This document shows positions 1 to 12,825 of a DNA stretch of 64,000 nt, in pieces (the first letter of the stretch is position 1; every line of letters starts with the position of its first letter). The notes under the pieces are model-generated. The model saw only the letters and a list, made by a program, of their open reading frames with translations. It did not search any database and was not told the origin of the DNA. The translations under genes and the position numbers were made by a program. Source of the DNA: a virus (Duplodnaviria > Caudoviricetes); IMG/VR virus record IMGVR_UViG_3300031853_000001, positions 116,933 to 180,932 of that record; one strand, given 5' to 3'.

Positions 1-2
1 AA

Positions 3-386
3 ATTTTTGAGCAGGCTTTTGGCGATAAGGAAGTTATTCTATTCGGTGAGGGCTATGGTCGTAAAATTCAGAAGGGCGGTGGCAAGTATATTGCCGATGG
101 CGTTGATTTTATTCTATTTGACGTTCTAATTGGTGAGAATTATCAAGAACGTGAATGGGTTGAAAGCACCGCCAAGATGTTTGGTATTAAGGTCGTCCCA
201 ATTGTGGGTGGCGGTTCGCTTGAAGACGCTGTAAATTATGTTAAGAAGCACCCTAATTCGATAATTGCGGAAGATGTACGAGAAATGGAAGGTATTGTAT
301 GTAGACCCGCTGTTGAGCTACGTGACCGTCGTGGTAATCGTATTATTGTAAAAATTAAGTGGGAAGATATAAAGGAGCTTATTTAA
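3..386 (+). CDS. ATP-dependent RNA ligase (Rnl2-like nucleotidyltransferase), 5'-truncated by window edge
   Basis: Frame open from base 3: ...ILFGEGYG...FILFDV...EGIVCRP...IVKIK, matching nucleotidyltransferase motifs III, IIIa, IV and V. Confidence 0.75.
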   Translation: MFEQAFGDKEVILFGEGYGRKIQKGGGKYIADGVDFILFDVLIGENYQEREWVESTAKMFGIKVVPIVGGGSLEDAVNYVKKHPNSIIAEDVREMEGIVCRPAVELRDRRGNRIIVKIKWEDIKELI

Positions 387-387
387 T

Positions 388-612
388 ATGAATGGATTTT
401 ATAAAGTAAAAGTTAATAATTATGGAGAAAAACCCGAAGAATGGTCTGGTGTTGTTGTGGGTAACGATGAAGGTGACCTTATGAACAAGGTTATGAAATA
501 TTATGGTCACGATAATGTAGAACAAATAAGCTTTTGGTTTGGAGAATTTTATGATAATGATGTCGTAGAATTTGACGATTTTAAGGATTGTCCATTATTT
601 GACTTTCACTAA
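388..612 (+). CDS. hypothetical protein
   Basis: 74-aa ORF abutting the ligase, RBS AAGGAG. Confidence 0.6.
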   Translation: MNGFYKVKVNNYGEKPEEWSGVVVGNDEGDLMNKVMKYYGHDNVEQISFWFGEFYDNDVVEFDDFKDCPLFDFH

Positions 613-627
613 AAATTTTGATATAAT
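599..627 (+). promoter_or_regulatory. sigmaA-type promoter upstream of the tRNA island
   Basis: TTGACT-N17-TATAAT. Confidence 0.75.
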
Positions 628-658
628 ATTTATACAAGGTGAGGGAACTCACCAATAA

Positions 659-731
659 TGCGGAGTGGCCAAGTAGTTAAGGCAATTGGCTCATACCCAA
701 TAGATCAAGAGTGCAAATCTCTTCTCCGCAA
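659..731 (+). tRNA. tRNA-Met/Ile2 (CAT)
   Basis: Acceptor TGCGGAG/CTCCGCA; anticodon arm ATTGG-CTCATAC-CCAAT; T arm AAGAG-TGCAAAT-CTCTT. Confidence 0.85.
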
Positions 732-974
732 CTCAGCGCAAAAGGAGAGCAAGCTGTTACTCCGAGTGAACTTATCGGCGCTATATAAATAGGAAAAACC
801 AATTAAATACAGTATTTTAAATGAAGTAATAACTGCCATAGAAGTCATGACCTATGATAGAAGACACTTCATTTAAAGCAACCGGTTGATTTGCGCAATT
901 AAGTCGTTAGAAGCGACTAGAGGGAGAGACCCTGACTAATAAGCAAGTCCATTCTATGAAATGGTAATGTCGAA

Positions 975-1044
975 AACCAATTAGTGTAAAGTAGCATACC
1001 TTACCAATAATAAGGAGAATCAGCGTAGCGAACTGAATTGGCGT
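975..1044 (+). pseudogene. degenerate tRNA-like element (anticodon position AAT)
   Basis: CCAAT/ATTGG partial acceptor, GTGT..GCAT D stem, CCTTA-CCAATAA-TAAGG arm, TCAG..CTGA T stem; no CCA. Confidence 0.45.
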
Positions 1045-1708
1045 ACTGGAATTTGTTGTCCAGAGTAGGCATAAATCGAGCAGCAATGCGGTAATACCCG
1101 TGCACAGGTAGCTAAATTACCCTGGCTCACCAATTATTTTAGAAGATAAGACTTGAGCTTATCTCTGGCTATGAAGCGAGTGCCGTGCCGCAGATGCGGT
1201 GCTTAGTGGAGCCTATGTGGGTTTAGCGTGTCAACCACAATGCGGATAGGTATTAACCGAAAGAAAACACGCTTTAATGGCGCTTTATCCCAAGCCTTTT
1301 CGCGGCGGCGCTATAAGTACCAAAAGGTATTATTTAATACTGAGCGTGAAACTAAGAGGGAACTGAAGGCTGTGCCAAGGTGAAAGGCTAACAGTCCGAG
1401 TGATGACCGTTGAAGCCATTCGGTGCATAGTGGTGCCGTTAAAGCGATGGATGCATACATCGTCCACTTCATTTAATGACTTGATGCTTATCAAGCTAGA
1501 ACTATCGAGGACGTGTGCGGTGGGAATGTTTGAGATTAGATGTAGATAGTTTAAGTATAGACTTGCGGTGCAAGCCTAATCAACTGGCGTTCCGCGGCCA
1601 GAATACTTTGCGGGCTTTATTGATTCGGGAGGAAGTGTCCGTAGATGAACTTCTCGGAGTAATCGCCATAATCGAATCAGCCGTGCGGCTGGCATAATGC
1701 CGCAATAT

Positions 1709-1828
1709 GGCACCGTAGTGCAAAGGTAAGCACGCCGGCCTTTGTGAGATAGGGTAAAGTGCAGTTCAACTCTGCCGTCTCGCACCACAAGCCGGTGATG
1801 CTGGGTTCAAGTCCCGCCGGTGCTTCCA
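1709..1828 (+). tRNA. tRNA-Glu(TTC) interrupted by a 44-nt tRNA-like insert (1744-1787)
   Basis: GGCACCG/CGGTGCT acceptor + T-CCA; CCGGC/GCCGG anticodon stem; removing 1744-1787 gives loop CT-TTC-AA. Confidence 0.85.
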
Positions 1829-1831
1829 AGC

Positions 1832-1918
1832 AAAGAAAAGAGAAGCATAAATCTGATCAATTTATGAGATAATGATGCCCTAACATCAAGTCTTTTCTTT
1901 AATAAATATTATTAGGGT
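1832..1918 (+). promoter_or_regulatory. three-way junction with RBS-pairing loop (RAGATH-18-like) before HNH gene
   Basis: AAAGAAAAGA/TCTTTTCTTT stem; CATAAAT/ATTTATG; TGATG-CCCTAA-CATCA loop complementary to TTAGGG at the RBS. Confidence 0.55.
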
Positions 1919-1924
1919 GATATT

Positions 1925-2566
1925 ATGAGTAGAAAATTAAGCCAACAACAATTTGAAGAAAGAGTATATAAGACATTTGGAGATAAATATTCTGTAGTAA
2001 GTGAATATTTAGGTCAAAGAAAACCTATAACTTTACATTGTAATATACACAATATTGATTTTACAGCTACTGCTGAATGTTTCATGAGACAAGCTAATGA
2101 CACTCGCTCAAGTTGTCCAGAATGTACTGCAGAAAAACGAAGACAAGAAAATAATTCTGTAAAATGTGAATGTGCTTATTGTCATAAAATTTTTTATTTG
2201 TCTCAATCTAAAGCTAATAATTCTAAAAGTGGATTACATTTTTGTTGTAGAGAACATAAAGATTTAGCTCAAAGAATAGATAGCGGTGAACAATTCGATA
2301 TAATGCGCCCGCCTCATTATAATGCAATAAAAAATGATACAGGAACAATTGGGACATATCGTATTTTAGCTTTTAGAAATTATCCCCATAAGTGCGCTGT
2401 TTGTAATTGGGACGAAGATGAAGATATATTACAAGTTCATCATATAGATGAAAATAGACAAAATAATTCTTTAACCAATTTAATTATTTTATGTCCTAAT
2501 TGTCACGCAAAAATAACTTATGGGAAATATAAATTAATTGATCGAAAACAAATTATATTAAAATAA
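1925..2566 (+). CDS. HNH endonuclease
   Basis: CAVC...VHHIDENRQNN...LCPNCH. Confidence 0.85.
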   Translation: MSRKLSQQQFEERVYKTFGDKYSVVSEYLGQRKPITLHCNIHNIDFTATAECFMRQANDTRSSCPECTAEKRRQENNSVKCECAYCHKIFYLSQSKANNSKSGLHFCCREHKDLAQRIDSGEQFDIMRPPHYNAIKNDTGTIGTYRILAFRNYPHKCAVCNWDEDEDILQVHHIDENRQNNSLTNLIILCPNCHAKITYGKYKLIDRKQIILK

Positions 2567-2579
2567 AATTAAATAGGAG

Positions 2580-2885
2580 TTGTTGTATATGGCAATCCAC
2601 GATAGAGCTTATACTCGTACAAAAAGTTGGACTAAGGCACTTCGTAAATACCACATTGATAGAGATATTTCCGCAGGTAAATGGTGGCCTATGTACAATA
2701 ATCTCCATCAATATGCTGATAATAAAATTCATTGTTCCTGTCCAATGTGTAGTGCTAAAACCAACAACAAAAAGCGCAATGGGCCTCGTGGATGGGAACC
2801 TTCAAAAAATTGGTCTATTTCAGATCAAAAGAAAATTAATAGTATGGAAAGTCAAGTTGAGGAATTAAATGATAACTTGGAATAA
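2580..2885 (+). CDS. hypothetical protein (HCSCPMC motif)
   Basis: ORF with RBS AGGAG; start may be ATG 2589. Confidence 0.6.
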   Translation: MLYMAIHDRAYTRTKSWTKALRKYHIDRDISAGKWWPMYNNLHQYADNKIHCSCPMCSAKTNNKKRNGPRGWEPSKNWSISDQKKINSMESQVEELNDNLE

Positions 2886-3063
2886 TTTTAAATGTGATTT
2901 TCCGTATCATCGTATAGATAATTTTGGCGATTATAGTGAAATGTGGTGCGGACGATTAGAAAAATATATTTCTAATTGTAATGATTGCCCATTTAACCAA
3001 AAAGAAAAAGAGATGCGTGAAGACCCCAATAATTATCAAAAATGGCTAAAATTACATAATTGA
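2869..3063 (+). CDS. hypothetical Cys-rich protein
   Basis: Overlaps upstream ORF; RBS GAGG. Confidence 0.55.
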   Translation: MITWNNFKCDFPYHRIDNFGDYSEMWCGRLEKYISNCNDCPFNQKEKEMREDPNNYQKWLKLHN

Positions 3064-3121
3064 CTTTTTCTAAAAATTATAGTATAATATATATAGTTAA
3101 GGGAAAGGAGATAAATTATTT

Positions 3122-3253
3122 ATGAATTATCTGGATGATTTTCTTGTTGGCCCGCAGAGCGATGAATATGATTGGTATTATGAAAATGAAATTCCTGATC
3201 CAGAATGGGACAGGAGATGTCGAGGATTGGATAAACTAATACTTGACAAGTAA
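3122..3253 (+). CDS. small acidic protein (43 aa)
   Basis: RBS AAAGGAG and own promoter at ~3060; below ORF-track cutoff. Confidence 0.5.
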   Translation: MNYLDDFLVGPQSDEYDWYYENEIPDPEWDRRCRGLDKLILDK

Positions 3254-3271
3254 TAAAAATTATGTTATAAT
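3243..3271 (+). promoter_or_regulatory. consensus sigmaA promoter
   Basis: TTGACA-N17-TATAAT with TG extended -10. Confidence 0.8.
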
Positions 3272-3301
3272 ATTTATAGAAACAAGGAAAGGATGATAAT
3301 T

Positions 3302-3394
3302 GTGCGCTTTACGACTCGCAAGTCTCGTACTGTGTTTTCTTCTTCTTGGAGTCGCCGCAAGCAGGCAGAGATGCTTGATGAGTGGCAGATTTAA
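3302..3394 (+). CDS. small basic peptide (30 aa, GTG start) MRFTTRKSRTVFSSSWSRRKQAEMLDEWQI
   Basis: RBS GAAAGGA behind a consensus promoter. Confidence 0.5.
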   Translation: MRFTTRKSRTVFSSSWSRRKQAEMLDEWQI

Positions 3395-3939
3395 ACGCCA
3401 GATTAGTTCAGCAAATTGCGGCCAATATTAATGGCGTTACCGCATTCCTTACTTATAGTTTGGAAGTACAAAGGTTTTGAGTAATTGAACCGGTTAAATC
3501 AATGCTTGGCGCCGGGTCCACCCTACTGGGCTCGTAAACAAATCGCGGCCAATGGTGAGAAGCGCCACCGCTATAAAGGAATGCCCCACGACGGGTTTCG
3601 TAAGTTATGTTGAAAGATATATACTAGCTTGGAATAAGCACACGCAAGAGTTGCTATAATGCGCAACAGAAAAATCCTTTATAATAGGTTAACCTACGGT
3701 CGGATGGGAGACGATAAACCCCTTTCAAGCAGTCTCTTTGGCGGTTGGACTTAAAATAAACCACCTAGGTCAGCAGGACTGATAACTATATATTATAGAA
3801 GCAATCTCTTTTATAATATATAGAAAACGCAGCCATAATCCTGTCGTTGCGGCGAACAACGATAAAAATCGCTAGTAGCCCAGATACTTACTTAAAGGGT
3901 TTTCGCCGCGTTAATCTTGGTATCGGATTGCGGTTGTAT

Positions 3940-4074
3940 CCACGCGTGGTGCAAATGGCGAGACACAGCGGACTTACGTAGGCCCAGTGGCTTGTTGGAG
4001 AGCAACACTCCTTCCTACGACCAAAATCCGCGACGCAAGATACATTGCTGGTTCAAATCCAGTCGCGTGGACCA
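3940..4074 (+). tRNA. tRNA-Leu(TAA) interrupted by a 47-nt tRNA-like insert (3977-4023)
   Basis: CCACGCG/CGCGTGG-A-CCA; GCGGA/TCCGC stem; long variable region; removing the insert gives CT-TAA-AA. Confidence 0.85.
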
Positions 4075-4077
4075 TAT

Positions 4078-4154
4078 GAGTTTGTAACCGAATTGGCATA
4101 GGTACTTGGCTCAAACCCAAGGTTTTGTGGGTTCGACTCCCACCAAACTCACCA
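4078..4154 (+). tRNA. tRNA-Leu(CAA)
   Basis: GAGTTTG/CAAACTC-A-CCA; CTTGG-CTCAAAC-CCAAG; GTGGG-TTCGACT-CCCAC. Confidence 0.9.
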
Positions 4155-4222
4155 AAATTTATATTTCGAGTGCGAATTATAATAATTTGAATTCGATGTT
4201 ATTACTTATCTAATGTAAGGAG

Positions 4223-4993
4223 GTGGTTAATATGCCACTAAAATATAAATTAGAAGAAGTATTAACAGAAAATTCTCCTGTTACTAGAAAAGTTTTAAAA
4301 GATTATTTAGCAAAATATAATGTTTTAGAATATAAATGTGCAATATGCGATAACAGAGGAGAATGGAATGGAGTTTCTTTAACATTACAAATAGACCATA
4401 TTAATGGTATAAGAGATGATAATAGAAAAGAAAATCTTCGTTGGCTATGCCCGAATTGTCATTCTCAAACTGATACTTTTACTGGGAAAAATAAAACTAA
4501 AAAAGAAGTTGTTAATTTTACAGTAGAAGAAGCTATTAAAGCATTACAACAAACTGAAAATGTAAATCAAGCAACCAAATTAATCGGCTGTGCGCAAGGT
4601 GGAGCAAATTGGATTAGAGTAAATGATATTAAAAAAAAGTATGGAATTATTCAATCTGGGGATTTAAAGAAAGAAGAAAAACAAAAGTTTAAAGAAAATC
4701 ATATTAATGCGAAACCAATTAACTCTATTAAATTATGTAAAAAATGCGGCCGTCCGTTATCGACAAAAGATGCTGAATACTGTCAAACTTGTATACACGA
4801 ATTTCAACGAAAATGTGAATGGCCTTCTCGCGAAGAACTTAAAAAATTAATTCGCTCTACACCTTTTTTACAAATAGGTAAAAAATATAATGTAAGCGAT
4901 AATGCTGTAAGAAAATGGTGCTTAAATTATGGTTTGCCATCTAAAAAGATGGAAATAAAAGCAATTTCAGATGAAGATTGGAATAATATTTGA
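4223..4993 (+). CDS. HNH endonuclease
   Basis: CAIC...LQIDHING...NLRWLCPNCHSQT. Confidence 0.9.
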   Translation: MVNMPLKYKLEEVLTENSPVTRKVLKDYLAKYNVLEYKCAICDNRGEWNGVSLTLQIDHINGIRDDNRKENLRWLCPNCHSQTDTFTGKNKTKKEVVNFTVEEAIKALQQTENVNQATKLIGCAQGGANWIRVNDIKKKYGIIQSGDLKKEEKQKFKENHINAKPINSIKLCKKCGRPLSTKDAEYCQTCIHEFQRKCEWPSREELKKLIRSTPFLQIGKKYNVSDNAVRKWCLNYGLPSKKMEIKAISDEDWNNI

Positions 4994-5044
4994 CTTTCTT
5001 TTAAAATTATAGTATAATAATTATAGTAAAGAGAAAGGATTTAT

Positions 5045-5257
5045 ATGAAAGCAAAGTGTAAATGCAGTTGTATTTGGGACTATTCTTGTAATGATATTAA
5101 AGTTGAACCTGACGGTCACGATGTTGTAGTTACTTTATATTGCCCTAATTGTGGGCATCAGCTTTTTGCTTATAGCCCTAATGACCTAATAGAAAAAGTA
5201 TCTCCTTCTTATGTTGATACTCATTGTTTTTCAAAATACACTTGGAATAATACTTGA
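5045..5257 (+). CDS. hypothetical Zn-ribbon protein
   Basis: CxC..CPNCG; promoter and RBS upstream. Confidence 0.6.
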   Translation: MKAKCKCSCIWDYSCNDIKVEPDGHDVVVTLYCPNCGHQLFAYSPNDLIEKVSPSYVDTHCFSKYTWNNT

Positions 5258-5294
5258 CTTTTAGCAGAAAATCTGCTATAATAAATATGTAAGA

Positions 5295-5365
5295 ACGACG
5301 GTAGCAGCAGTTTTAATAATAAATATTTTTAATGTAAAAATCCTTATTAGCAAAAATTCCGTCGT
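5295..5365 (+). ncRNA. stem-CAGCA cassette 1 (skipping-rope-like)
   Basis: ACGACGG/CCGTCGT closing stem, GCAGCAG, internal AT-rich hairpin. Confidence 0.5.
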
Positions 5366-5379
5366 GCTGATTGAAATTA

Positions 5380-5445
5380 AGGCGGACACAGCAAATAACT
5401 ATTTAAGCAATAATCTTTTAAATTATGTAGCTAAAATAACCGCCT
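5380..5445 (+). ncRNA. stem-ACAGCAA cassette 2 carrying a Lys(TTT) anticodon arm
   Basis: AGGCGG/CCGCCT; ACAGCAA; ATAAT-CTTTTAA-ATTAT. Confidence 0.6.
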
Positions 5446-5454
5446 AGAATTTAT

Positions 5455-5532
5455 GTGCCCGTGGCGCAACTTGGCAGACGCGCTACACTTAGGATGTAGA
5501 TTTTCAGAGTTCAAATCTCTGCGGGCGCACCA
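5455..5532 (+). tRNA. tRNA-Leu(TAG)
   Basis: GTGCCCG/CGGGCGC-A-CCA; CTACA-CTTAGGA-TGTAG; CAGAG-TTCAAAT-CTCTG. Confidence 0.9.
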
Positions 5533-5740
5533 GTCACTCCTCGCTAATGCGACAAGTCGCGTTAACATTTGTTTGTTAGCTACTGTTGGAAAACGCGACT
5601 TTAAAATACAAAGAAGCAACAGTAAATAGCTCAAACCGTATGTTGAGACTATCGTAACTATCACATTCTAGGAGTCCTGACTCGTTATTGGACTTAATAC
5701 TCAACGGAGTTGGCGCCCAAACAAATCCTAGAATGTATAT

Positions 5741-5793
5741 GGTATCAAGTGAAGAGCCTTCTCGTGGCGATACTGATTTCGACTAATCTTCAC
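5741..5793 (+). ncRNA. minimal HDV-like (theta-type) self-cleaving ribozyme
   Basis: P1 GGTATC/GATACT with G1.U wobble; P2 GTGAAGA/TCTTCAC; P3 GCC/GGC; L3 TTCTCGT; J4/2 CTAA. Confidence 0.75.
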
Positions 5794-6015
5794 AAAATAT
5801 TAAAGCGTGCTTTTCCTTGCTGTACACTTGTTGAAAAGCCAAATGTTCCCGTATGAGAATACGCAGGTTATACCTGTATATTGAAATCCCATAAGACGTC
5901 ACAAAGGAATGGATAGAAATTACAATGGGCCATTCAGAAAGTAGAACACTTTAATATTTGACTTTTTCTGAAAATTCTGGTATAATAATTACAGAAACAA
6001 GGAAAGGACAAAATA

Positions 6016-6171
6016 ATGAAGATACTTGTTGTAAATAAAGATGAGAAAATACAATTAATTCATCTCCTAAAACAAGAAATACGCAAACCTGGTTGTCCTT
6101 ATGAATTACTTACTATTTTAGAAAAACTTAGTCCTGGAGACTATGAATATCTTTTTACAACTATGAAATAA
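6016..6171 (+). CDS. small hypothetical protein (51 aa)
   Basis: Promoter at 5958-5986, RBS GAAAGGA. Confidence 0.55.
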   Translation: MKILVVNKDEKIQLIHLLKQEIRKPGCPYELLTILEKLSPGDYEYLFTTMK

Positions 6172-6194
6172 AAGAAAGGAAGTAGATACTCCAT

Positions 6195-6748
6195 TTAATA
6201 AAATGGTTGAACCAAGTGAAGAAGAGTTAACCACTCTGCTTGGGCTATCTAAATAACAGCCATACGATTTAGCGGGATACTACTAAATCGCGGCCACGAA
6301 ATCAGTAATGATTAGTGATAAGGAGAAACTCTTAATGTTAAGGATAGGCGCTTGGTTATTCGCTAACAAAAACTTGGCTCCTTGCGGCGTCGTAATAGAA
6401 AGCAGATTGAGCAGATTTGCCGAACCCAGAAAAGACTTTAAGGTGGCAGTTAAAGGGACTCTGGGAAAGCCATAAGACGTTTGGTGTCGTTGAAACCTAG
6501 AAATAGGATATAAGCAAGGTTCACAGATAAAGTAGCCTAAAACGACAATGATTCTAATAAGTAATTTAATTAGAATAATGTGCTGAATGGTTTAGGTGAA
6601 ATTTGGGAGTAATCAGTCTCCCCGTTGCTAGCCAAAAGGCAGGATGAAGAAGTTAAAGGGTCGCTACCTTTGGCTCAGCCTTCATCTTCAACGTGGTTGA
6701 ATATGTTAGAAGGATAATACAAGTACGGCGAAGGTCGCAACGGTTTTA
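6195..6748 (+). ncRNA. large structured RNA, ROOL-like
   Basis: ~550 nt ORF-free and helix-rich; the 3' part (AAAAGGCAGGATGAAG..GGGTCGCTACC..CTCAGCCTTCATC..GTGGTTGAATA..GGCGAAGGTC) resembles ROOL 3' domains as recalled; tRNA-island context. Confidence 0.5.
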
Positions 6749-6768
6749 TTAAATGGGGTATTTGCCCT

Positions 6769-6854
6769 AGACTTTAAGGTAGCATTGGAGTAATTAACCA
6801 ATGAGACAAAGATGCTCCTACATCGGCTTAAAGTTTAAAATATAATCATAGGAG
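6769..6854 (+). promoter_or_regulatory. RAGATH-18-like three-way junction/pseudoknot masking the HNH RBS
   Basis: ACTTTAAG/CTTAAAGT; CATTGG/CCAATG; GAGACAAA; GATG-CTCCTA-CATC loop complementary to RBS TAGGAG. Confidence 0.6.
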
Positions 6855-6863
6855 TGATTTAAT

Positions 6864-7424
6864 ATGCCAAGGAAAATTGATTTAACAGGAAAAATTTTTG
6901 GAATCATACAGGTAGATTCGCCAGCACCAAGTCAATCTGGTAAAACGTATTGGAATTGTCATTGTACAATTTGTAATACTAAAAAAGTAATTCAAGGTTG
7001 CGCCTTAAAAAATGGTTCTATTAAAACTTGCGGTTGTGGTTGTTCTTTTCATAAACAAAATACTTCAAAAATTTGTGAAATTTGTGGAAAAGAATTTATT
7101 CCAATAAAATTTGGCGGTGCTAGAAAATATTGTTATGAATGTTCTCCGCAAGAAGGCTCAGAAACAGATAAGCGCACAGTTATAAGACGAGCTTTAAAAA
7201 AGATGCTAGTTGATTATAAAGGTGGAAAATGTGAACGATGTGGATATAATAAATGTTTACGCGCATTAGAATTTCATCATTTAAATCCGTCTGAAAAAGA
7301 TTTTGGAATTTCTGGATGTATAACTAAAAATGTAGAAGAATTAAAAAATGAAGTTAATAAATGTATTTTAGTTTGTTCTAATTGTCACGCGGAAATTCAT
7401 GAAGAATTAGACGAGGCCCGTTAG
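6864..7424 (+). CDS. HNH endonuclease
   Basis: CERCGY..LEFHH...CILVCSNCHAEIH; stop codon lies inside tRNA-Asn. Confidence 0.85.
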   Translation: MPRKIDLTGKIFGIIQVDSPAPSQSGKTYWNCHCTICNTKKVIQGCALKNGSIKTCGCGCSFHKQNTSKICEICGKEFIPIKFGGARKYCYECSPQEGSETDKRTVIRRALKKMLVDYKGGKCERCGYNKCLRALEFHHLNPSEKDFGISGCITKNVEELKNEVNKCILVCSNCHAEIHEELDEAR

Positions 7425-7491
7425 TCCAGTTGGCAGAACGATAGACTGTTAATCTATGTCAGCGCTGGTTCAAGTCCAGCACGGGCCGCCA
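7415..7491 (+). tRNA. tRNA-Asn(GTT)
   Basis: GGCCCGT/ACGGGCC-G-CCA; ATAGA-CTGTTAA-TCTAT. Confidence 0.92.
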
Positions 7492-7771
7492 TAGTCACAT
7501 AGAGGACTTATTCTCTATGCTTGCTCAACGTCCCACTTATGTGAACGCGCGAAGTCACATAAGAGAGTCAACCCTTCCGAAGTACGAAGGAACCCCTAAA
7601 ATGGTCTGTGGGGATAAGCGGTGTCATGAACCGCCTAATGTAGCTGGCAAAGAGCATAGGTTCGTTAGGCTCCTAAGAAAAGCCTATCACCATCACGATA
7701 GCAAATAAGTGAATAAACGGATACGCGGTTAGCTGACCTTAAAGCTATTCTAATCTAGAGGAGAATAAAAT

Positions 7772-8311
7772 ATGAGTGACGTAAGACTAAAAATTTTACC
7801 TCCATGGACAGTAACAATTCGTAAGTTTGAGGCACTATTTGACGGTGACCCACAAATTGCTTGTAATTGTAATTTCTCAGGTTCTAATCCTTCTATTGTA
7901 CTAGCTTGTAATAATGGTGATAAGGTTGCTGCTCTACAGCAGATTCTTCCTTCTGAAGTTGGCTTTGGCAATATTAAGCTAAAGGTCGCGGTTGATGGTG
8001 TTCCTTCTAATCGTACTTTCAAGAGTAAGGTTGAACTATTTGACACGGCTTTCAAGGGGAATCCAGCATACGCTTATTCTGCATGTCCTGCTGAGGAAGG
8101 TTATCAGTGGATTGGGACTACTTATGTTGTATTTAATAACTGTGTAGTGCAGTTCGCGGCGGACAATCTAAATGATTGCCATGGTATTATTAGCACCCTA
8201 TATGAAACTATCGCAAGCGAACTTCTAACTGGCCCCGCTACTGATGGTGTATTTTATAATACAAATGTAGAACGTGCTGGGCTTGGTCTTTCGCTAGGAG
8301 AATGGCCATAA
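7772..8311 (+). CDS. hypothetical protein
   Basis: 179 aa, RBS GAGGAG, phage-like codon usage. Confidence 0.75.
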   Translation: MSDVRLKILPPWTVTIRKFEALFDGDPQIACNCNFSGSNPSIVLACNNGDKVAALQQILPSEVGFGNIKLKVAVDGVPSNRTFKSKVELFDTAFKGNPAYAYSACPAEEGYQWIGTTYVVFNNCVVQFAADNLNDCHGIISTLYETIASELLTGPATDGVFYNTNVERAGLGLSLGEWP

Positions 8312-8532
8312 AAGATAAGTTCACTGGGCTCTTCTAAAGTCCAGTACCAAAGCCGAATGTCACATAAAGTTAACGACGGTGCGGTATGAAAAGACCACGC
8401 TGTAGTGGCACGGGCAGAGCTAATCCGGCAAGGAAAGCGGCGGTTAAAGTGAAATCGCGACGCGGAAAGAGAAAGAATAACAACCAGTGATGGGTCGAAA
8501 GACGTCTTATCAGTTTTCTCGGTCACTTTTAT

Positions 8533-8606
8533 AGTCCGTTAGTTTAACAGTAAAATATAACCCTGTCACGGTTAAGTTACGAGGGCAGCACTCGTACGGA
8601 CTGCCA
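8533..8606 (+). tRNA. tRNA-Asp(GTC) with atypical T loop GGCAGCA
   Basis: AGTCCGT/ACGGACT-G-CCA; TAACC-CTGTCAC-GGTTA. Confidence 0.85.
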
Positions 8607-8724
8607 TAGACTCAAACAGCAATATTTTACTTGCATGTGGGGCCGGAAGTATTGGTTTAACTCCAGTTCTCTCCACCACATGGAGAGATAGTGTAACGAT
8701 AGCACGCCGTATAGTATGAGTCTA
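8607..8724 (+). ncRNA. stem-ACAGCAA cassette 3 containing a circularly permuted tRNA (GTG/His-like anticodon)
   Basis: TAGACTCA/TGAGTCTA; the 3' half (T arm, TCTCTCC-A-CCA) precedes the 5' half (GGAGAGA-TA-D arm). Confidence 0.7.
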
Positions 8725-8730
8725 GTATAT

Positions 8731-9283
8731 CGGGTTGTAGCGCAGTTTGGTAGCGCGCCTCGCTTGGGAAAAGCGATTTGTGCTTAATTATTATGTTAGA
8801 CATTACTCAACAAAAAGGAACGATTACAGAATTACGATGTATTTTAGATTTAACTAATTTGGGAATACGATGTTTAGTTCCTGTAGATGAAAGTTCTAAA
8901 TATGATGTAGTAGCAGATTTAAATGGTACTTTTATTAGAATTCAATGTAAAACAGCTTGTTGGGCTAAAGATACCGTTCAAGAAAAAGTAGCCTTTGAAA
9001 TAGATACTTGTCGAAGTACAACAAATACTAAAACTACTACTCATTATAAGTATTCTGCTAATGAAATTGATTATTTTTATACATGGTTTGAAGGACAAGG
9101 TTACTTAGTCTCCATTAAAGAAGCAAAAGGTTTAACTTTTAGATGGCGATATGAATATCCTTCTACCAATCAAAAACAAGGTATTCATATCGCAGAATTA
9201 TATAAGACTGAGGAGGTTTTAAAAGCACTCTAAAATTTTCCTGGACGAGGAGGCCGCAGGTTCAAATCCTGCCTGCCCGACCA
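8731..9283 (+). tRNA. tRNA-Pro(TGG) split by a 476-nt endonuclease-bearing insert (8767-9242)
   Basis: 5' half CGGGTTG..CCTCG-CTTG; 3' half GGA-CGAGG..GCAGG-TTCAAAT-CCTGC-CTGCCCG-A-CCA. Confidence 0.85.
8778..9233 (+). CDS. PD-(D/E)XK homing endonuclease (I-Ssp6803I-like) inside tRNA-Pro; likely start ATG 8793
   Basis: KG.ITE...KYDVVAD...IRIQCKT motif. Confidence 0.8.
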   Translation: MCLIIMLDITQQKGTITELRCILDLTNLGIRCLVPVDESSKYDVVADLNGTFIRIQCKTACWAKDTVQEKVAFEIDTCRSTTNTKTTTHYKYSANEIDYFYTWFEGQGYLVSIKEAKGLTFRWRYEYPSTNQKQGIHIAELYKTEEVLKAL

Positions 9284-9394
9284 TAATCAACTGGGTTTGA
9301 AGGTTATCCCATTTGAAAAACCTTCCCCTTTCTTTCTTGACTTTTTCTAAAAATTTTGATATAATAAATATATCAAAGGAAAGGAAATAAAAAG

Positions 9395-9622
9395 ATGGAT
9401 AAGAAAGAACTTTCTACTAATGCGGCAAAAGCAGAATTTGTAAAGTCTATTCATAATTGGCTTATGCGAACTTTAGAGCAAAACAATAAATCTGAATATA
9501 AAGATTGTTTTACTGTTGAAGGTTCTAGTATTATGTGCCAACTGCCGCAAGACTACTTTAATTCATGTAGTATTCCAGCGAACACTAAGATTGAAATGAA
9601 GTTTATTTCTAAGAAATCATAA
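9395..9622 (+). CDS. hypothetical protein
   Basis: Promoter at 9337-9365, RBS. Confidence 0.65.
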   Translation: MDKKELSTNAAKAEFVKSIHNWLMRTLEQNNKSEYKDCFTVEGSSIMCQLPQDYFNSCSIPANTKIEMKFISKKS

Positions 9623-9626
9623 CTAA

Positions 9627-9718
9627 TAAGCCTTTACTGCAATTACTTAAATGGTTAAATTATTTTGCTTGAATACAAAATGAGAGAAGGTTCGAGCCCT
9701 TCACAATTAAAAGGCTTA
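9627..9718 (+). ncRNA. stem-ACTGCAA cassette 4 with an acceptor-less tRNA body
   Basis: TAAGCCTTT/AAAGGCTTA; D-loop-like AAATGGTTAAA; ATTTTG-CTTGAATA-CAAAAT; GAAGG-TTCGAGC-CCTTC. Confidence 0.6.
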
Positions 9719-9734
9719 GCAAAGTTAGAAACTA

Positions 9735-9800
9735 AAGGCACAAGCAGCAACAAGACGTTTTAATAATTTGATAGTGGATTAAATTTATTGAGTGTGCCTT
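9735..9800 (+). ncRNA. stem-GCAGCAA cassette 5 with a GTG anticodon-like arm
   Basis: AAGGCACA/TGTGCCTT; TTTGA-TAGTGGA-TTAAA. Confidence 0.55.
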
Positions 9801-9809
9801 GATTATTAA

Positions 9810-9886
9810 GTCGGTTTAGCTTAGCTGGTTAAAGCACTCGCCTTGTAAGCGAGAGACCTTCGGTCCGAATCCGAAAACCGGCTCCA
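9810..9886 (+). tRNA. tRNA-Thr(TGT)
   Basis: GTCGGTT/AACCGGC-T-CCA; CTCGC-CTTGTAA-GCGAG. Confidence 0.9.
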
Positions 9887-9907
9887 TCTAAAAGAAGGAG
9901 TATTAAA

Positions 9908-10354
9908 ATGGGACTTTTTAATCGGTCTAAAAAAGAGCCTACAAAACAATATATTCCACCTGAGCAGCCTAAAAAATGCGAGCATAAATTTCAAGATTTT
10001 CCTTGGTATATAGAAGGAGAAGAAAATGAAGGTAATGTATATGGTTGTAACTCTTGGTATCATCTAGTAATTAAAGAACCTTATGTTTGTATTTATTGTG
10101 GCGAAAGATATGATAAAATATTGTGGGAAATAAGACGATATGGCTCTCATAAAGAAGCAATGCAGGCTCTAGATGATGTTAATGAAAAATTTAAAGACCG
10201 AATAAGACATCGCGCAGAAATTGAAGATATGATAAATGATATGCAATTAGTCGATCCTCAATATTTACAATATTATCATATGCTTCAGGGAACAAAAGAC
10301 CCATCTACTTCTCGATTATATGAGCAAGAAATTAAACCAAAATTAAAAACTTAA
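9908..10354 (+). CDS. hypothetical protein
   Basis: RBS AAGGAG, 148 aa. Confidence 0.7.
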   Translation: MGLFNRSKKEPTKQYIPPEQPKKCEHKFQDFPWYIEGEENEGNVYGCNSWYHLVIKEPYVCIYCGERYDKILWEIRRYGSHKEAMQALDDVNEKFKDRIRHRAEIEDMINDMQLVDPQYLQYYHMLQGTKDPSTSRLYEQEIKPKLKT

Positions 10355-10357
10355 TTT

Positions 10358-10476
10358 TATGCGGTCACAGCAATTTTAGATTTAATCTAAGTGTCATCGG
10401 TTCGATTCCGATTATTCCAGCCATTTAATTTGGAGTGTAGCTCAATTGGTAGAGCATTAGAATTATAAACCGCATA
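10358..10476 (+). ncRNA. stem-ACAGCAA cassette 6 containing a circularly permuted tRNA (TTT or TAT anticodon)
   Basis: TATGCGGT/ACCGCATA; 3' half 10381-10423 (ATCGG-TTCGATT-CCGAT, TATTCCA-G-CCA), then 5' half 10431-10461 (TGGAGTG-TA-GCTC-AATTGGTA-GAGC-A-TTAGA). Confidence 0.75.
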
Positions 10477-10489
10477 GTACGATATTTAA

Positions 10490-10554
10490 GACGCTTACAG
10501 CAATTTAATACAGTCGCACACATAAATAATTACATGACTAAGTAATAGAGCGTC
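10490..10554 (+). ncRNA. stem-ACAGCAA cassette 7
   Basis: GACGCT/AGCGTC; TACAGCAA. Confidence 0.55.
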
Positions 10555-10577
10555 GCGTTTTTATTTGAGGAATTAAA

Positions 10578-11012
10578 ATGAAGTTATATACATCTTATTT
10601 CGCGCAATTAAGGAATTTTCCACCAAATCTTGTTGGGCTTTCAACTGCAATTTGGAATCCCAAATGGTTGAATCCTGGCCGCGATAAAAATGGAGCAATT
10701 TGGTTAGATATTCCGCCACTTAAACCTGGGAAGGAGTGCGATGGATTATGTAATGGGAAGTGTGCTCCAAAACATCCTAATGATTGTGATTTTCTTAAAG
10801 TATATCGTAAGCAACTTGATAGGATAGATTTTAAGATGTTTATTGAACATTTAGAAACTCTTGCTAAAACTATTCAACTTGGCGAAAATTTAGACGAAGT
10901 TAATTTTGCCTTTCTTGTTTATGAAAAGTATGATAATCCTTGTAGTGAACGCGCAATAATTCAACAATGGTTTAAGGATAATGGAATGGAGATTGAAGAA
11001 TGGAAGAAATAA
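10578..11012 (+). CDS. DUF488-like protein
   Basis: MKLYTSYFA...YEK....CSER..I..W pattern. Confidence 0.55.
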   Translation: MKLYTSYFAQLRNFPPNLVGLSTAIWNPKWLNPGRDKNGAIWLDIPPLKPGKECDGLCNGKCAPKHPNDCDFLKVYRKQLDRIDFKMFIEHLETLAKTIQLGENLDEVNFAFLVYEKYDNPCSERAIIQQWFKDNGMEIEEWKK

Positions 11013-11332
11013 ATAATTATGATTGGCTTCATTATATTCCACAGGGTTGGAAAGAAATTGGCCGACAAATGATTCAAGAGTGCGAAGCAATTGACCCAAC
11101 TTACTGCATTTGCGATTTAAAAGAAAAATGGGGAACCCTTGATGTAATCGCAAATTGTGATATGACTTATTGGCGTGAAATAGATATGATTGAAAATAAG
11201 TATGAAAAATTAAGTGCAAGAACTTGTTGTTCCTGCGGCCAACCCGCTACAAAATATTCTACTGGATGGATTCTTCCTTGGTGTGATAAATGCGGCGATA
11301 TGGATGAAAAGTTTTATAAGAGGTTTGAATAA
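11000..11332 (+). CDS. hypothetical phage protein
   Basis: KEKWG.L...TC..CG...GWI...C pattern. Confidence 0.65.
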   Translation: MEEINNYDWLHYIPQGWKEIGRQMIQECEAIDPTYCICDLKEKWGTLDVIANCDMTYWREIDMIENKYEKLSARTCCSCGQPATKYSTGWILPWCDKCGDMDEKFYKRFE

Positions 11333-11428
11333 GGCGGGTTAAGCCTAATTTGGTAAGGCAGGAGATTGCTAATCTCTGAGTAATCGGTGTATACCGGTGT
11401 TTCGGTTCAAGTCCGAAACCCGTCGCCA
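11333..11428 (+). tRNA. tRNA-Ser(GCT)
   Basis: GGCGGGT/ACCCGTC-G-CCA; GGAGA-TTGCTAA-TCTCT; long variable arm. Confidence 0.9.
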
Positions 11429-11430
11429 AT

Positions 11431-11588
11431 TGTGGACTGTTGGCTTAGAAGCAGCCATTCAGCTAAGGAGTTCTTAATTTCTCTATTAGTGCGAAATGTA
11501 TTGTGGGCTACATTTGTTATAATGCCCCACGAGTATGATGTGCAAATAGGTAATAGGAATATAAGATTTGGCGTAATAGCACACCACA
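11431..11588 (+). ncRNA. mimic of 23S rRNA H43-H44 (L11-binding / GTPase-associated centre)
   Basis: TGTTGGCTTAGAAGCAGCCAT (11438-11458) and GCGTAATAGC (11571-11580), closed by TGTGG/CCACA. Confidence 0.7.
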
Positions 11589-11719
11589 AATATTGAGCTG
11601 GCCAGAGTAGCGTGCAGAAAGCTCATTAAACACGGGGTTACTACATAGACTTGCCCACGCCTCTTAACAATGCGTACCTTGGAGAGCGCGTGTTCCGCGA
11701 CGTTTAACTGCGGATTTAT

Positions 11720-11794
11720 GCGGGTGTAGTTCAACGGCTCGAATACTTGGCTTCCACCCAGGAGATGAGGTTTCGACTACCTCTACTCGCACCA
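11720..11794 (+). tRNA. tRNA-Gly(TCC)
   Basis: GCGGGTG/TACTCGC-A-CCA; CTTGG-CTTCCAC-CCAGG. Confidence 0.9.
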
Positions 11795-11797
11795 TAT

Positions 11798-11874
11798 AGG
11801 GAATTAGCGTAATGGTAGCGCCGCGGGCTTTGAACCCGTCTGTTGTAAAGGTTCGATTCCTTTATTCCCTGCCA
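11798..11874 (+). tRNA. tRNA-Gln(TTG)
   Basis: AGGGAAT/ATTCCCT-G-CCA; GCGGG-CTTTGAA-CCCGT. Confidence 0.9.
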
Positions 11875-11947
11875 ACCCAGATAGCATTAGGGTTTTCGGT
11901 GCGATAAACTTGCTATCGGTTTGCACCTGTTTTAAGGAGATTATATT

Positions 11948-12184
11948 ATGAAACGAGGAACAGATCATTCTTGGGAAGTGCGTAAATATTTAGGAGACAT
12001 AGCTTGGTATGCACATTGTAAATGTGGGTTTGAATATGCTTGCTCAAAAAGTAAAAGAAATAATGATGGGACTTGGTCCGTTGAGCAAGAAATAGATTGG
12101 CTTGCCCATTATTGCCCAAATTGTGGTGCTCGCAAGAAATGGTATAATCTTGAAATAATTAAAATAAATAAACATAAGTTCTAG
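11948..12184 (+). CDS. hypothetical Zn-ribbon protein
   Basis: CKCG..YCPNCGA; RBS AAGGAG. Confidence 0.65.
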   Translation: MKRGTDHSWEVRKYLGDIAWYAHCKCGFEYACSKSKRNNDGTWSVEQEIDWLAHYCPNCGARKKWYNLEIIKINKHKF

Positions 12185-12196
12185 GAGGTTAATCGG

Positions 12197-12511
12197 ATGA
12201 ACAAAGATATTTTAGATTTTATTAACAGGAGATTTCCTATTACCGATGAAGATAATGACAATTGGATGACAACCAATTGTTATTACTTCGCCCGCATTTT
12301 AAAAACAAGATTCAAAGGTGAAATTTGGTATGACTTGGTTGATGGTCATTTTCTCTTCCGTCGCGGCGATTACTTTTTTGATTGGACTGGGGTTAGATTA
12401 GAATATGATTTAAATAAGCCCGAAACGGTTGATAATCTAGTCAAGTGGTCTGATTATAAAAAGGTTGACCCTGTGCATTATGATAGAATTGTAAGAGATG
12501 TAATTAATTAA
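12197..12511 (+). CDS. hypothetical protein
   Basis: RBS AGGAGG; NCYYFA..L..RF...GH...DWTG. Confidence 0.7.
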   Translation: MNKDILDFINRRFPITDEDNDNWMTTNCYYFARILKTRFKGEIWYDLVDGHFLFRRGDYFFDWTGVRLEYDLNKPETVDNLVKWSDYKKVDPVHYDRIVRDVIN

Positions 12512-12525
12512 AGAGGATTAAAATT

Positions 12526-12771
12526 ATGAGTAGATTTCTAAGAAATATTAATGATTTAGACGCTTTTCGCGCGGCCGTAAGACAGTGTAAGGGAGATGTA
12601 ATTCTTCGCAGCACTGATGGGGTGGAAGAGTTTAATTTAAAGAGTAAGCTATCGGAATTTATTGCTTTGGGTAAGTTAGCAGATACTCATGGCGATGAAT
12701 ATGAAATTTTTTGTATGGATAGAGCAGATGAAGCAGTTTTATTAAAGTATTTTTATGATAGAGATCATTAA
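12526..12771 (+). CDS. HPr-fold-like small protein
   Basis: CKGDVILRS.DG..NLKS.LS pattern. Confidence 0.5.
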   Translation: MSRFLRNINDLDAFRAAVRQCKGDVILRSTDGVEEFNLKSKLSEFIALGKLADTHGDEYEIFCMDRADEAVLLKYFYDRDH

Positions 12772-12779
12772 TTAGTATA

Positions 12780-12807
12780 AAACCCGCGAAAGCGGGTTTA
12801 TTTTTTT
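12780..12807 (+). terminator. intrinsic terminator
   Basis: AAACCCGC-GAAA-GCGGGTTT followed by a T tract. Confidence 0.8.
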
Positions 12808-12825
12808 AGGTGGAGGTGGGAAAAA

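Follow-up and report, generated by a model that had tools for sequence, protein, structure and literature searches.

A conserved, laterally spreading tRNA-shaped intervening sequence in the anticodon of a phage tRNA-Leu(UAA) gene

A virus record of 180,932 bp in IMG/VR (34% G+C) carries a tRNA-Leu(UAA) gene whose anticodon is split by 47 nt resembling the top half of a second tRNA, which raises the question of what this insert is and whether the gene that holds it can still yield a tRNA. We studied the final 64 kb of the record, referred to here as the window, in which the gene and its parts are arranged as follows.

3940-4074, + strand: split tRNA-Leu(UAA) gene, read from the sequence and with ARAGORN
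3940..3976, + strand: 5' exon, with the acceptor 5' strand, D arm, anticodon stem 5' strand and C32, U33, U34 and A35
3977..4023, + strand: 47-nt top-half 'minihelix' insert, assigned by its geometry and by covariance model R1 (58.5 bits)
3977-3983: acceptor 5' strand of the insert
3984-3995: linker of the insert
3996-4000 and 4008-4012: T stem of the insert
4001-4007: loop of the insert, AGCAACA
4013-4019: acceptor 3' strand of the insert
4020 and 4021-4023: discriminator A and CCA of the insert
4024..4074, + strand: 3' exon, with A36, A37 and A38, anticodon stem 3' strand, variable region, T arm, acceptor 3' strand, A73 and encoded CCA
4078..4154, + strand: uninterrupted tRNA-Leu(CAA), 3 nt downstream of the split gene

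The outer gene has an acceptor stem (CCACGCG/CGCGTGG), a D arm, a T arm (GCTGG-TTCAAAT-CCAGT) and A73 with an encoded CCA; its anticodon stem pairs GCGGA (3968-3972) with TCCGC (4027-4031), and the loop reads CTTA, insert, AAA. The insert site falls between anticodon positions 35 and 36 with a 1-nt ambiguity, and an earlier remark that the junction is uncertain by one A is correct, since removal of 3976-4022 yields an identical spliced product. When 3977-4023 is deleted in silico, ARAGORN calls tRNA-Leu(taa), a clean cloverleaf with a 7-nt loop and a UAA anticodon. The split gene itself is missed both by ARAGORN without introns and by the Rfam tRNA model; once introns are allowed, ARAGORN detects it, but with the junction misplaced and as Leu(caa). 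We rejected this reading, Leu(CAA) with an intron at position 36, because it ignores the ends of the minihelix and because the intact tRNA-Leu(CAA) 3 nt downstream would render it redundant. The insert is a top half only, and no tRNA is predicted in it by ARAGORN or Rfam.

From 5' to 3' the insert reads CGTAGGC / CCAGTGGCTTGT / TGGAG / AGCAACA / CTCCT / TCCTACG / A / CCA. Its acceptor stem has seven positions, six of them paired (7-66 is a C.U mismatch), and its T stem has five, four of them paired (49-65 is a U.U mismatch). The T stem abuts the acceptor 3' strand with no spacer, exactly as in a tRNA, and 12 linker nt stand in for the D arm, anticodon arm and variable region. As a T loop AGCAACA is non-canonical, with C56, A57 and A58 present and U54 and U55 absent, and the tail consists of the discriminator A and CCA (ACCA, 4020-4023), unchanged in 16 copies of the insert. 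The window contains a second gene of this construction.

1709..1828, + strand: tRNA-Glu(UUC) gene, with a sister 44-nt minihelix insert at 1744-1787, between positions 35 and 36

The Glu insert reads GTGAGAT / 9 nt / TGCAG-TTCAACT-CTGCC / GTCTCGC / A / CCA, with a canonical T loop (TTCAACT), and its removal in silico leaves a clean Glu(UUC) cloverleaf. ARAGORN's Val(CAC) call for this gene was rejected, as it ignores the minihelix ends and as the body of the gene matches an intact tRNA-Glu(UUC) in contig L124. The first-pass annotation had described the two inserts as alike in architecture and unrelated in sequence. The first part stands, both having the spacing 7 + 5 + 7-nt loop + 5 + 7 + N + CCA; the second is true of the acceptor stems, which differ, and not of the T arm plus tail, which agree at 15 of 21 aligned positions.

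Such a geometry is rare by chance. In 2 million shuffles with the ends fixed, scored for at least 6/7 acceptor pairs, at least 4/5 T-stem pairs and CCA at the very end, it was reached by a fraction of 1.8e-5 for the Leu insert and, under identical criteria, 1.65e-5 for the Glu insert. A covariance model of this architecture (R1) scores 58.5 bits for the Leu insert and 45.2 bits for the Glu insert in the 181-kb genome, the next, insignificant matches being 3' halves of real tRNAs. A covariance search of phage tRNA loci had been proposed earlier as a check; with R1, the two inserts are the sole hits in their own genome, and 0 new members emerged from 0.9 Mb of other phage tRNA loci. The model also missed a long-linker insert in L237, described below. 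In both inserts the MFE fold is favoured over the tRNA-like one by 5 kcal/mol, nearest-neighbour folding preferring another inner hairpin. A description of the insert as a MITE-like element with a 6-bp terminal inverted repeat was rejected, there being no target duplication and the tRNA spacing being common to unrelated inserts.

By pattern scanning, the Leu insert was located in 15 further viral or metagenomic contigs of IMG/VR and the JGI metagenomes, at 94-100% identity. It occurs in three variants, of which v1 is that of the window, v2 has the loop AGCAGCA in place of AGCAACA, and v3 adds a change of CGTAGG/CCTACG to CGTGGG/CCCACG, a compensatory A-U to G-C replacement in the closing stem. 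The proposal that the insert arose by chance insertion or as an assembly artefact, to which we give practically no credence, is refuted by these independent assemblies, since the same insert is present in 16 contigs from different samples and the chance level is ~2e-5. We conclude that this tRNA-shaped intervening sequence of 47 nt is real and conserved and that it spreads laterally. Insert-bearing tRNA-Leu exons come in four types. Between types the 3' exons are 63-73% alike, whereas the inserts are 94-100% alike; because the insert is more conserved than the exons around it, comparison of the sequences points to lateral spread among diverged tRNA-Leu(UAA) genes. The ACCA is retained even in exon type C, whose outer tRNA encodes no CCA.

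All insert-bearing tRNA-Leu(UAA) genes have in common the anticodon arm CAGCGGACTTA|AAATCCGC, and the same arm is found as an uninterrupted 19-mer in >120 other viral contigs. The spliced Leu forms align with intronless phage tRNA-Leu(UAA) genes; among the matches listed, no intronless allele has exons of types A-D, and only diverged intronless genes have the 19-nt arm. Selection on structure had been suspected from the two inserts of the window, and it is supported by the compensatory change in the closing stem, by ACCA in 16/16 copies and by four unrelated inserts with identical geometry. Relatives do not display random indels; stem and ACCA are conserved in them. The metagenome scan pattern left the T stem free, and all copies carry GGAG/CTCC, so that there is no T-stem covariation within the Leu lineage, where the pairing of the T stem is a prediction. 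A blastn search of INPHARED with 3300-4200 matched only the neighbouring Leu(CAA) gene and found the insert in no isolate phage, and the 935-aa neighbouring protein used as a query retrieved no related loci. A loose pattern, GCGGACTT-N25-55-AAATCCGC, gave mostly chance matches, among which L047 and L094 came up by accident. The sister Glu insert is present in three other contigs (L267, L268 and L269), with one discriminator A-to-G variant. At these Glu loci an HNH or GIY-YIG gene lies ~100 nt downstream and a short RNA ligase gene ~1.3-1.7 kb upstream.

The two inserts belong to a wider set. Some 15 distinct short inserts came out of ~2.2 Mb of fetched phage loci when ARAGORN was set to allow introns, and six independent ones have minihelix geometry: the Leu and Glu inserts, two in L047, and those in L246 and L237, the last four being unrelated in sequence. 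In 6/6, removal from acceptor position +1 to the final tail base leaves an anticodon loop of exactly 7 nt. When the six are aligned (alignment A1), 91.6% of cells pair, compared with 68.6% in shuffles and <=49% with partners slid, and 8 of the 12 pairs are changed on both sides, counts that are biased towards structure because the members were chosen by a structure scan. The expected number of false passes of the structure filter is ~0.01 among 15 candidates. The L047 Leu insert ends in CAA, not CCA, so CCA is not universal in related inserts.

Other short inserts in these loci are of different kinds. In L094 (a phage of 306 kb that has terminal repeats), the tRNA-Leu(UAA) at 2936-3046 with the same anticodon arm holds another insert of ~28 nt, a plain hairpin (GAATGCA...TGCATTG) with no CCA tail and thus a second kind of mini-insert at the site. 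Three tRNA-like genes (L137:165-288, L183:6054-6173 and L213:1407-1529) have 36-49-nt inserts in the anticodon region that contain ACAGCAA or TGCAAT, lack a CCA tail and fall outside the minihelix type. An odd tRNA-like sequence with an over-long middle, GCGGTGG...GGTGCAAATCCTTACCCGCA, lies ~400 nt upstream of the interrupted tRNA-Leu in L124, on the minus strand of the locus, and may be a further interrupted tRNA.

Whether the insert is removed depends on whether the split genes still serve as tRNA genes. Among exon type B alleles, L124 and L128 have five exon differences, made up of one compensatory variable-arm pair (U-A to C-G) and three loop positions, and in the Glu allele of L267 and L269 the exon's anticodon stem has U-A where the window has C-G, a compensatory change. 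In the long ORFs of the genome TTA, described by the first-pass annotation as a very common Leu codon, indeed accounts for 50% of Leu codons, GAA for 82% of Glu codons and CCA for 43% of Pro codons. Three interrupted genes (Leu UAA, Glu UUC and Pro UGG) are the phage's sole genes for those anticodons in the 181-kb record, and each of the three tRNAs reads the phage's most used codon for its amino acid. Structure-preserving exon changes, codon demand and the lack of a duplicate together argue for selection as tRNAs and, with it, for removal of the insert; from their sequences, the insert-bearing genes look functional. It is plausible that tRNA-Leu(UAA) is useful to the phage as the sole reader of UUA, given this codon usage and the structure-preserving exons, a view that presupposes excision. 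Our main reading, which we hold at a probability of roughly one half, is that a functional tRNA-Leu(UAA) gene is interrupted here by a 47-nt intron (intervening sequence), built from acceptor +1 to CCA and removed by a route that we infer below.

The same observations bear on the alternative that the insert is retained and the split tRNA no longer decodes, so that the insert would be a selfish or protective DNA insertion (for example, one that breaks a homing-endonuclease target) or the gene would have been repurposed to release a CCA-ended minihelix that would act as a decoy, drawing off defence nucleases directed at tRNAs or enzymes that bind tRNAs. Consistent with this alternative, homing-endonuclease genes of three families adjoin the interrupted tRNAs, the insert spread laterally, and RNase P would free a 5'-matured minihelix anyway. 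We consider retention quite unlikely, however, as the exons keep perfect cloverleaves and change by compensatory substitutions, the three interrupted tRNAs read the most used codons with no intact duplicate, and exact removal always restores a 7-nt loop. Moreover, protection at the DNA level is compatible with removal at the RNA level, and would need it.

If the insert is an intron, the first question is whether it could remove itself. Group I introns interrupt the tRNA-Leu(UAA) anticodon loop in cyanobacteria and plastids, making this loop their classic bacterial home, and the Leu insert resembles them in tRNA species, loop and mobility. A group I intron, however, has at least about 200 nt with a P3-P9 catalytic core and self-splices, whereas the insert has just 47 nt and no ribozyme core; a permissive Rfam scan of 1-13000 gave no ribozyme or intron match over it (Intron_gpI none at E up to 5). 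Nor does the insert conform to an archaeal-type bulge-helix-bulge (BHB) intron, as unpaired flanks of 4 nt and 7 nt surround a 6-bp helix in place of two 3-nt bulges 4 bp apart, and the phage has no tRNA_int_endo domain. With this length, no Rfam ribozyme and no BHB motif, the insert cannot self-splice, and we regard a self-splicing ribozyme intron (group I-like or with flanking self-cleaving ribozymes) or a BHB intron as highly improbable. Like archaeal and eukaryal tRNA introns, the Leu insert is small, lacks self-splicing and needs a protein nuclease and a ligase; unlike them, it has no BHB, no phage splicing endonuclease and a bacterial host, and it mimics a tRNA end-processing substrate.

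The ends of the Leu insert coincide with the two sites where every tRNA is matured. Acceptor/T-arm minihelices serve as model substrates for RNase P, for RNase Z and for the CCA-adding enzyme, and RNase P accepts those with a 3' CCA; McClain, Guerrier-Takada and Altman are said to have described minihelices as RNase P substrates in 1987. The Leu insert has the 12-layer stack of acceptor and T stem, the 7-nt loop and the N73-CCA of such substrates, but known minihelices are laboratory constructs or tRNA halves, whereas this one lies within another tRNA's anticodon, an arrangement of which we know of no other natural case.

Our analysis of this geometry suggests that ordinary tRNA-trimming enzymes could excise the insert and that a phage RNA ligase could reseal the tRNA. 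A host RNase P cut at 3976/3977 would provide the 5' exon with a 3'-OH, and a second endonucleolytic cut right after A4023, for which an RNase Z-type enzyme is a candidate, would provide the 3' exon with a 5'-phosphate. The outer cloverleaf would keep both exons together as a nicked anticodon loop, and a phage ATP-dependent ligase (the Rnl1-family enzyme or the short PF09414 ligase encoded among the tRNAs) would seal the nick. Because RNase P and RNase Z cuts give 3'-OH and 5'-phosphate ends, ATP-dependent RNA ligases could join them without end healing. In the predicted spliced junction ...GCGGACUUA is joined to AAAUCCGC, and the RNA reads ...CUUA|AAAUCC. The 3' cut must be endonucleolytic, as exonucleases cannot make a cut after A4023. 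The RNase Z of Bacillus-type hosts is inhibited by CCA, which counts against the proposed 3' cut. A precedent for it is the tRNase Z of Thermotoga maritima, which cuts exactly after A76 of an encoded CCA (PMC1540738). Taken as a whole, a third tRNA-splicing route of this kind, with RNase P and an RNase Z-like cut after CCA, an ATP-dependent phage ligase, no end healing and a minimal mobile intron spread with homing endonucleases, is put forward tentatively and as rather less than an even bet.

The phage encodes the following enzymes of RNA joining and repair.

1..386, + strand: 3' part of an RNA ligase gene (216 aa, PF09414, nucleotidyltransferase domain only; whole gene G000 116668-117318) that starts 264 nt before the window
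G000 65251-68835 (L121:1333-2475): Rnl1-family ligase, 380 aa, gene at G000 66583-67725
G000 73404-76805 (L252:1486-2367): kinase (AAA_33) + HD-domain protein, 293 aa

The gene for the 216-aa PF09414 ligase sits inside the tRNA cluster, and its product is a candidate sealing enzyme; the kinase-HD protein and the Rnl1-family ligase, which form a heal-and-seal RNA repair set, are encoded far from the cluster. Among other minihelix-bearing records, 8 of 10 have a PF09414 ligase scoring above the cut-off; among records whose Leu(UAA) gene is intronless, 6 of 50 do. The association is only suggestive because many insert-bearing phages are related and the comparison is thus confounded. In four records the ligase gene lies 0.65-2.3 kb from the interrupted tRNA. 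Relatives of the short PF09414 ligase occur in Streptomyces phages, Prevotella phages, crAss-like phages and others. A domain search of the phage found no RtcB, PNK3P, CCA-adding enzyme, tRNA-intron endonuclease (PF01974) or metallo-beta-lactamase RNase. T4 Pnkp and Rnl1 reseal anticodon loops cut by anticodon nucleases, and this phage, too, has a kinase-type healer and an Rnl1-family ligase; the T4 system differs in that it repairs damage and removes no encoded insert. The ligases and the kinase-HD protein are equally well explained as T4-type repair against anticodon nucleases.

These enzymes also figure in an alternative in which the insert is a true intron and another endoribonuclease, possibly phage-encoded, excises it by recognising the closing stem and the three-way junction; 2',3'-cyclic phosphate and 5'-OH ends would then be healed by the kinase-HD protein and sealed by the Rnl1-family ligase, re-using T4-type repair. 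Such a course would make use of the full heal-and-seal set in the genome (AAA_33 kinase + HD, Rnl1-family ligase), and it is in keeping with an MFE fold that differs from the tRNA-like fold and with the absence of CCA from some relatives. However, it gives no reason why six unrelated inserts should have ends that coincide exactly with acceptor +1 and CCA, or why their acceptor and T stems should be spaced exactly as in a tRNA. No candidate nuclease was identified, and tRNA-intron endonuclease, RtcB and metallo-beta-lactamase RNase are all lacking from the phage. We judge it unlikely.

As for movement at the DNA level, the insert would spread among phage tRNA-Leu(UAA) genes sharing CAGCGGACTTA|AAATCCGC, probably by gene conversion, which free-standing homing endonucleases encoded beside the interrupted tRNAs may help. 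Two endonuclease genes of the window stand in such positions.

4223..4993, + strand: free-standing HNH endonuclease gene (HNH_3 1.1e-06, HNH 8.9e-05), directly after the two Leu tRNAs
1925..2566, + strand: HNH endonuclease gene, 97 nt downstream of the interrupted tRNA-Glu

Three families of endonuclease are encoded directly downstream of interrupted tRNAs: HNH behind the Glu gene and the Leu pair of the window and also in L123 and L268, GIY-YIG in L267, and PD-(D/E)XK in L130 and L259. The arrangement in L123 is homologous to that of the window's HNH gene after the Leu tRNAs, and exon type B alleles have no adjoining endonuclease gene. From its position, the HNH gene at 4223..4993 is a candidate helper for DNA-level spread of the insert. 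In collaborative homing, a cyanophage psbA intron is paired with the free-standing endonuclease F-CphI. Like that intron, the Leu insert is ORF-less, adjoins a free-standing endonuclease gene and spread laterally, but it is not a ribozyme, and the endonuclease targets here are putative.

The third interrupted gene of the window is built differently. The tRNA-Pro(UGG) gene at 8731-9283 is split by a 476-nt insert (~8767-9242), removal of which gives a clean tRNA-Pro(tgg). The insert consists almost wholly of a PD-(D/E)XK ORF at 8793-9233 (PDDEXK_5, 2.6e-20), its ends pair as GGAAAA/TTTTCC, and it has no group I match in Rfam. L123, a close relative, has a quite different, uninterrupted tRNA-Pro(tgg).

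Short tRNA-looking inserts in phage tRNAs have been seen before. Devoto et al. 2019 (PMC6784885, Fig. 4) described 'enigmatic', highly conserved tRNA introns in Lak megaphages, one of which 'itself may encode a tRNA', and a 2026 survey of jumbo phages (PMC13037316) remarks in one sentence that tRNA introns 'could encode another tRNA'. Our literature search found no paper giving structure rules or a mechanism for such phage tRNA introns. Like the Leu insert, the Lak and jumbo-phage introns are short and tRNA-looking, lie in the anticodon region of a phage tRNA and are conserved across genomes, and the Leu insert is of the type described in 2019 in that it lies in the anticodon loop of a phage tRNA and its removal restores a standard tRNA. 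Paired alleles of one tRNA with and without the insert, another feature of that type, were not seen among the matches listed. The earlier introns come from phages of >200 kb with alternative genetic codes and were given no structure rules, mechanism or enzymes; the Leu insert, in contrast, belongs to a 181-kb phage with the standard code, is a top half only (no D or anticodon arm), has defined ends (acceptor +1 to CCA) and occurs in four exon backgrounds.

If excision works as proposed, it would amount to protein-dependent tRNA splicing in bacteria and phages, assembled from housekeeping tRNA-processing enzymes and an RNA ligase, and the pathway would be neither group I self-splicing nor the archaeal/eukaryal endonuclease route. 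Phage RNA ligases would then gain a role beyond damage repair, and the insert would be one of the smallest mobile introns known. The under-count of such genes by tRNA finders would also be explained, three genes for the top Leu, Glu and Pro codons being missed or mis-called here.

The tRNA cluster contains other RNA features. GC-rich ORF-less blocks lie upstream of the interrupted tRNAs at 3395-3935 and 1280-1700 and are probably undescribed structured RNAs. A motif, GTTGCGGCGAACAAC-N-ATAAAAATC-N-CTAGT, occurs at ~3847-3877 and also upstream of the interrupted tRNA-Leu in L124. The cluster further holds a full-length ROOL RNA (6188-6756, 315 bits) and a drum RNA (1166-1277, 70.8 bits), and two sub-threshold Rfam matches were recorded, one YrlA Y RNA-like (10388-10461, 30.4 bits; gathering score 69) and one to abiF RNA (11650-11687, 30.5 bits; gathering score 37).
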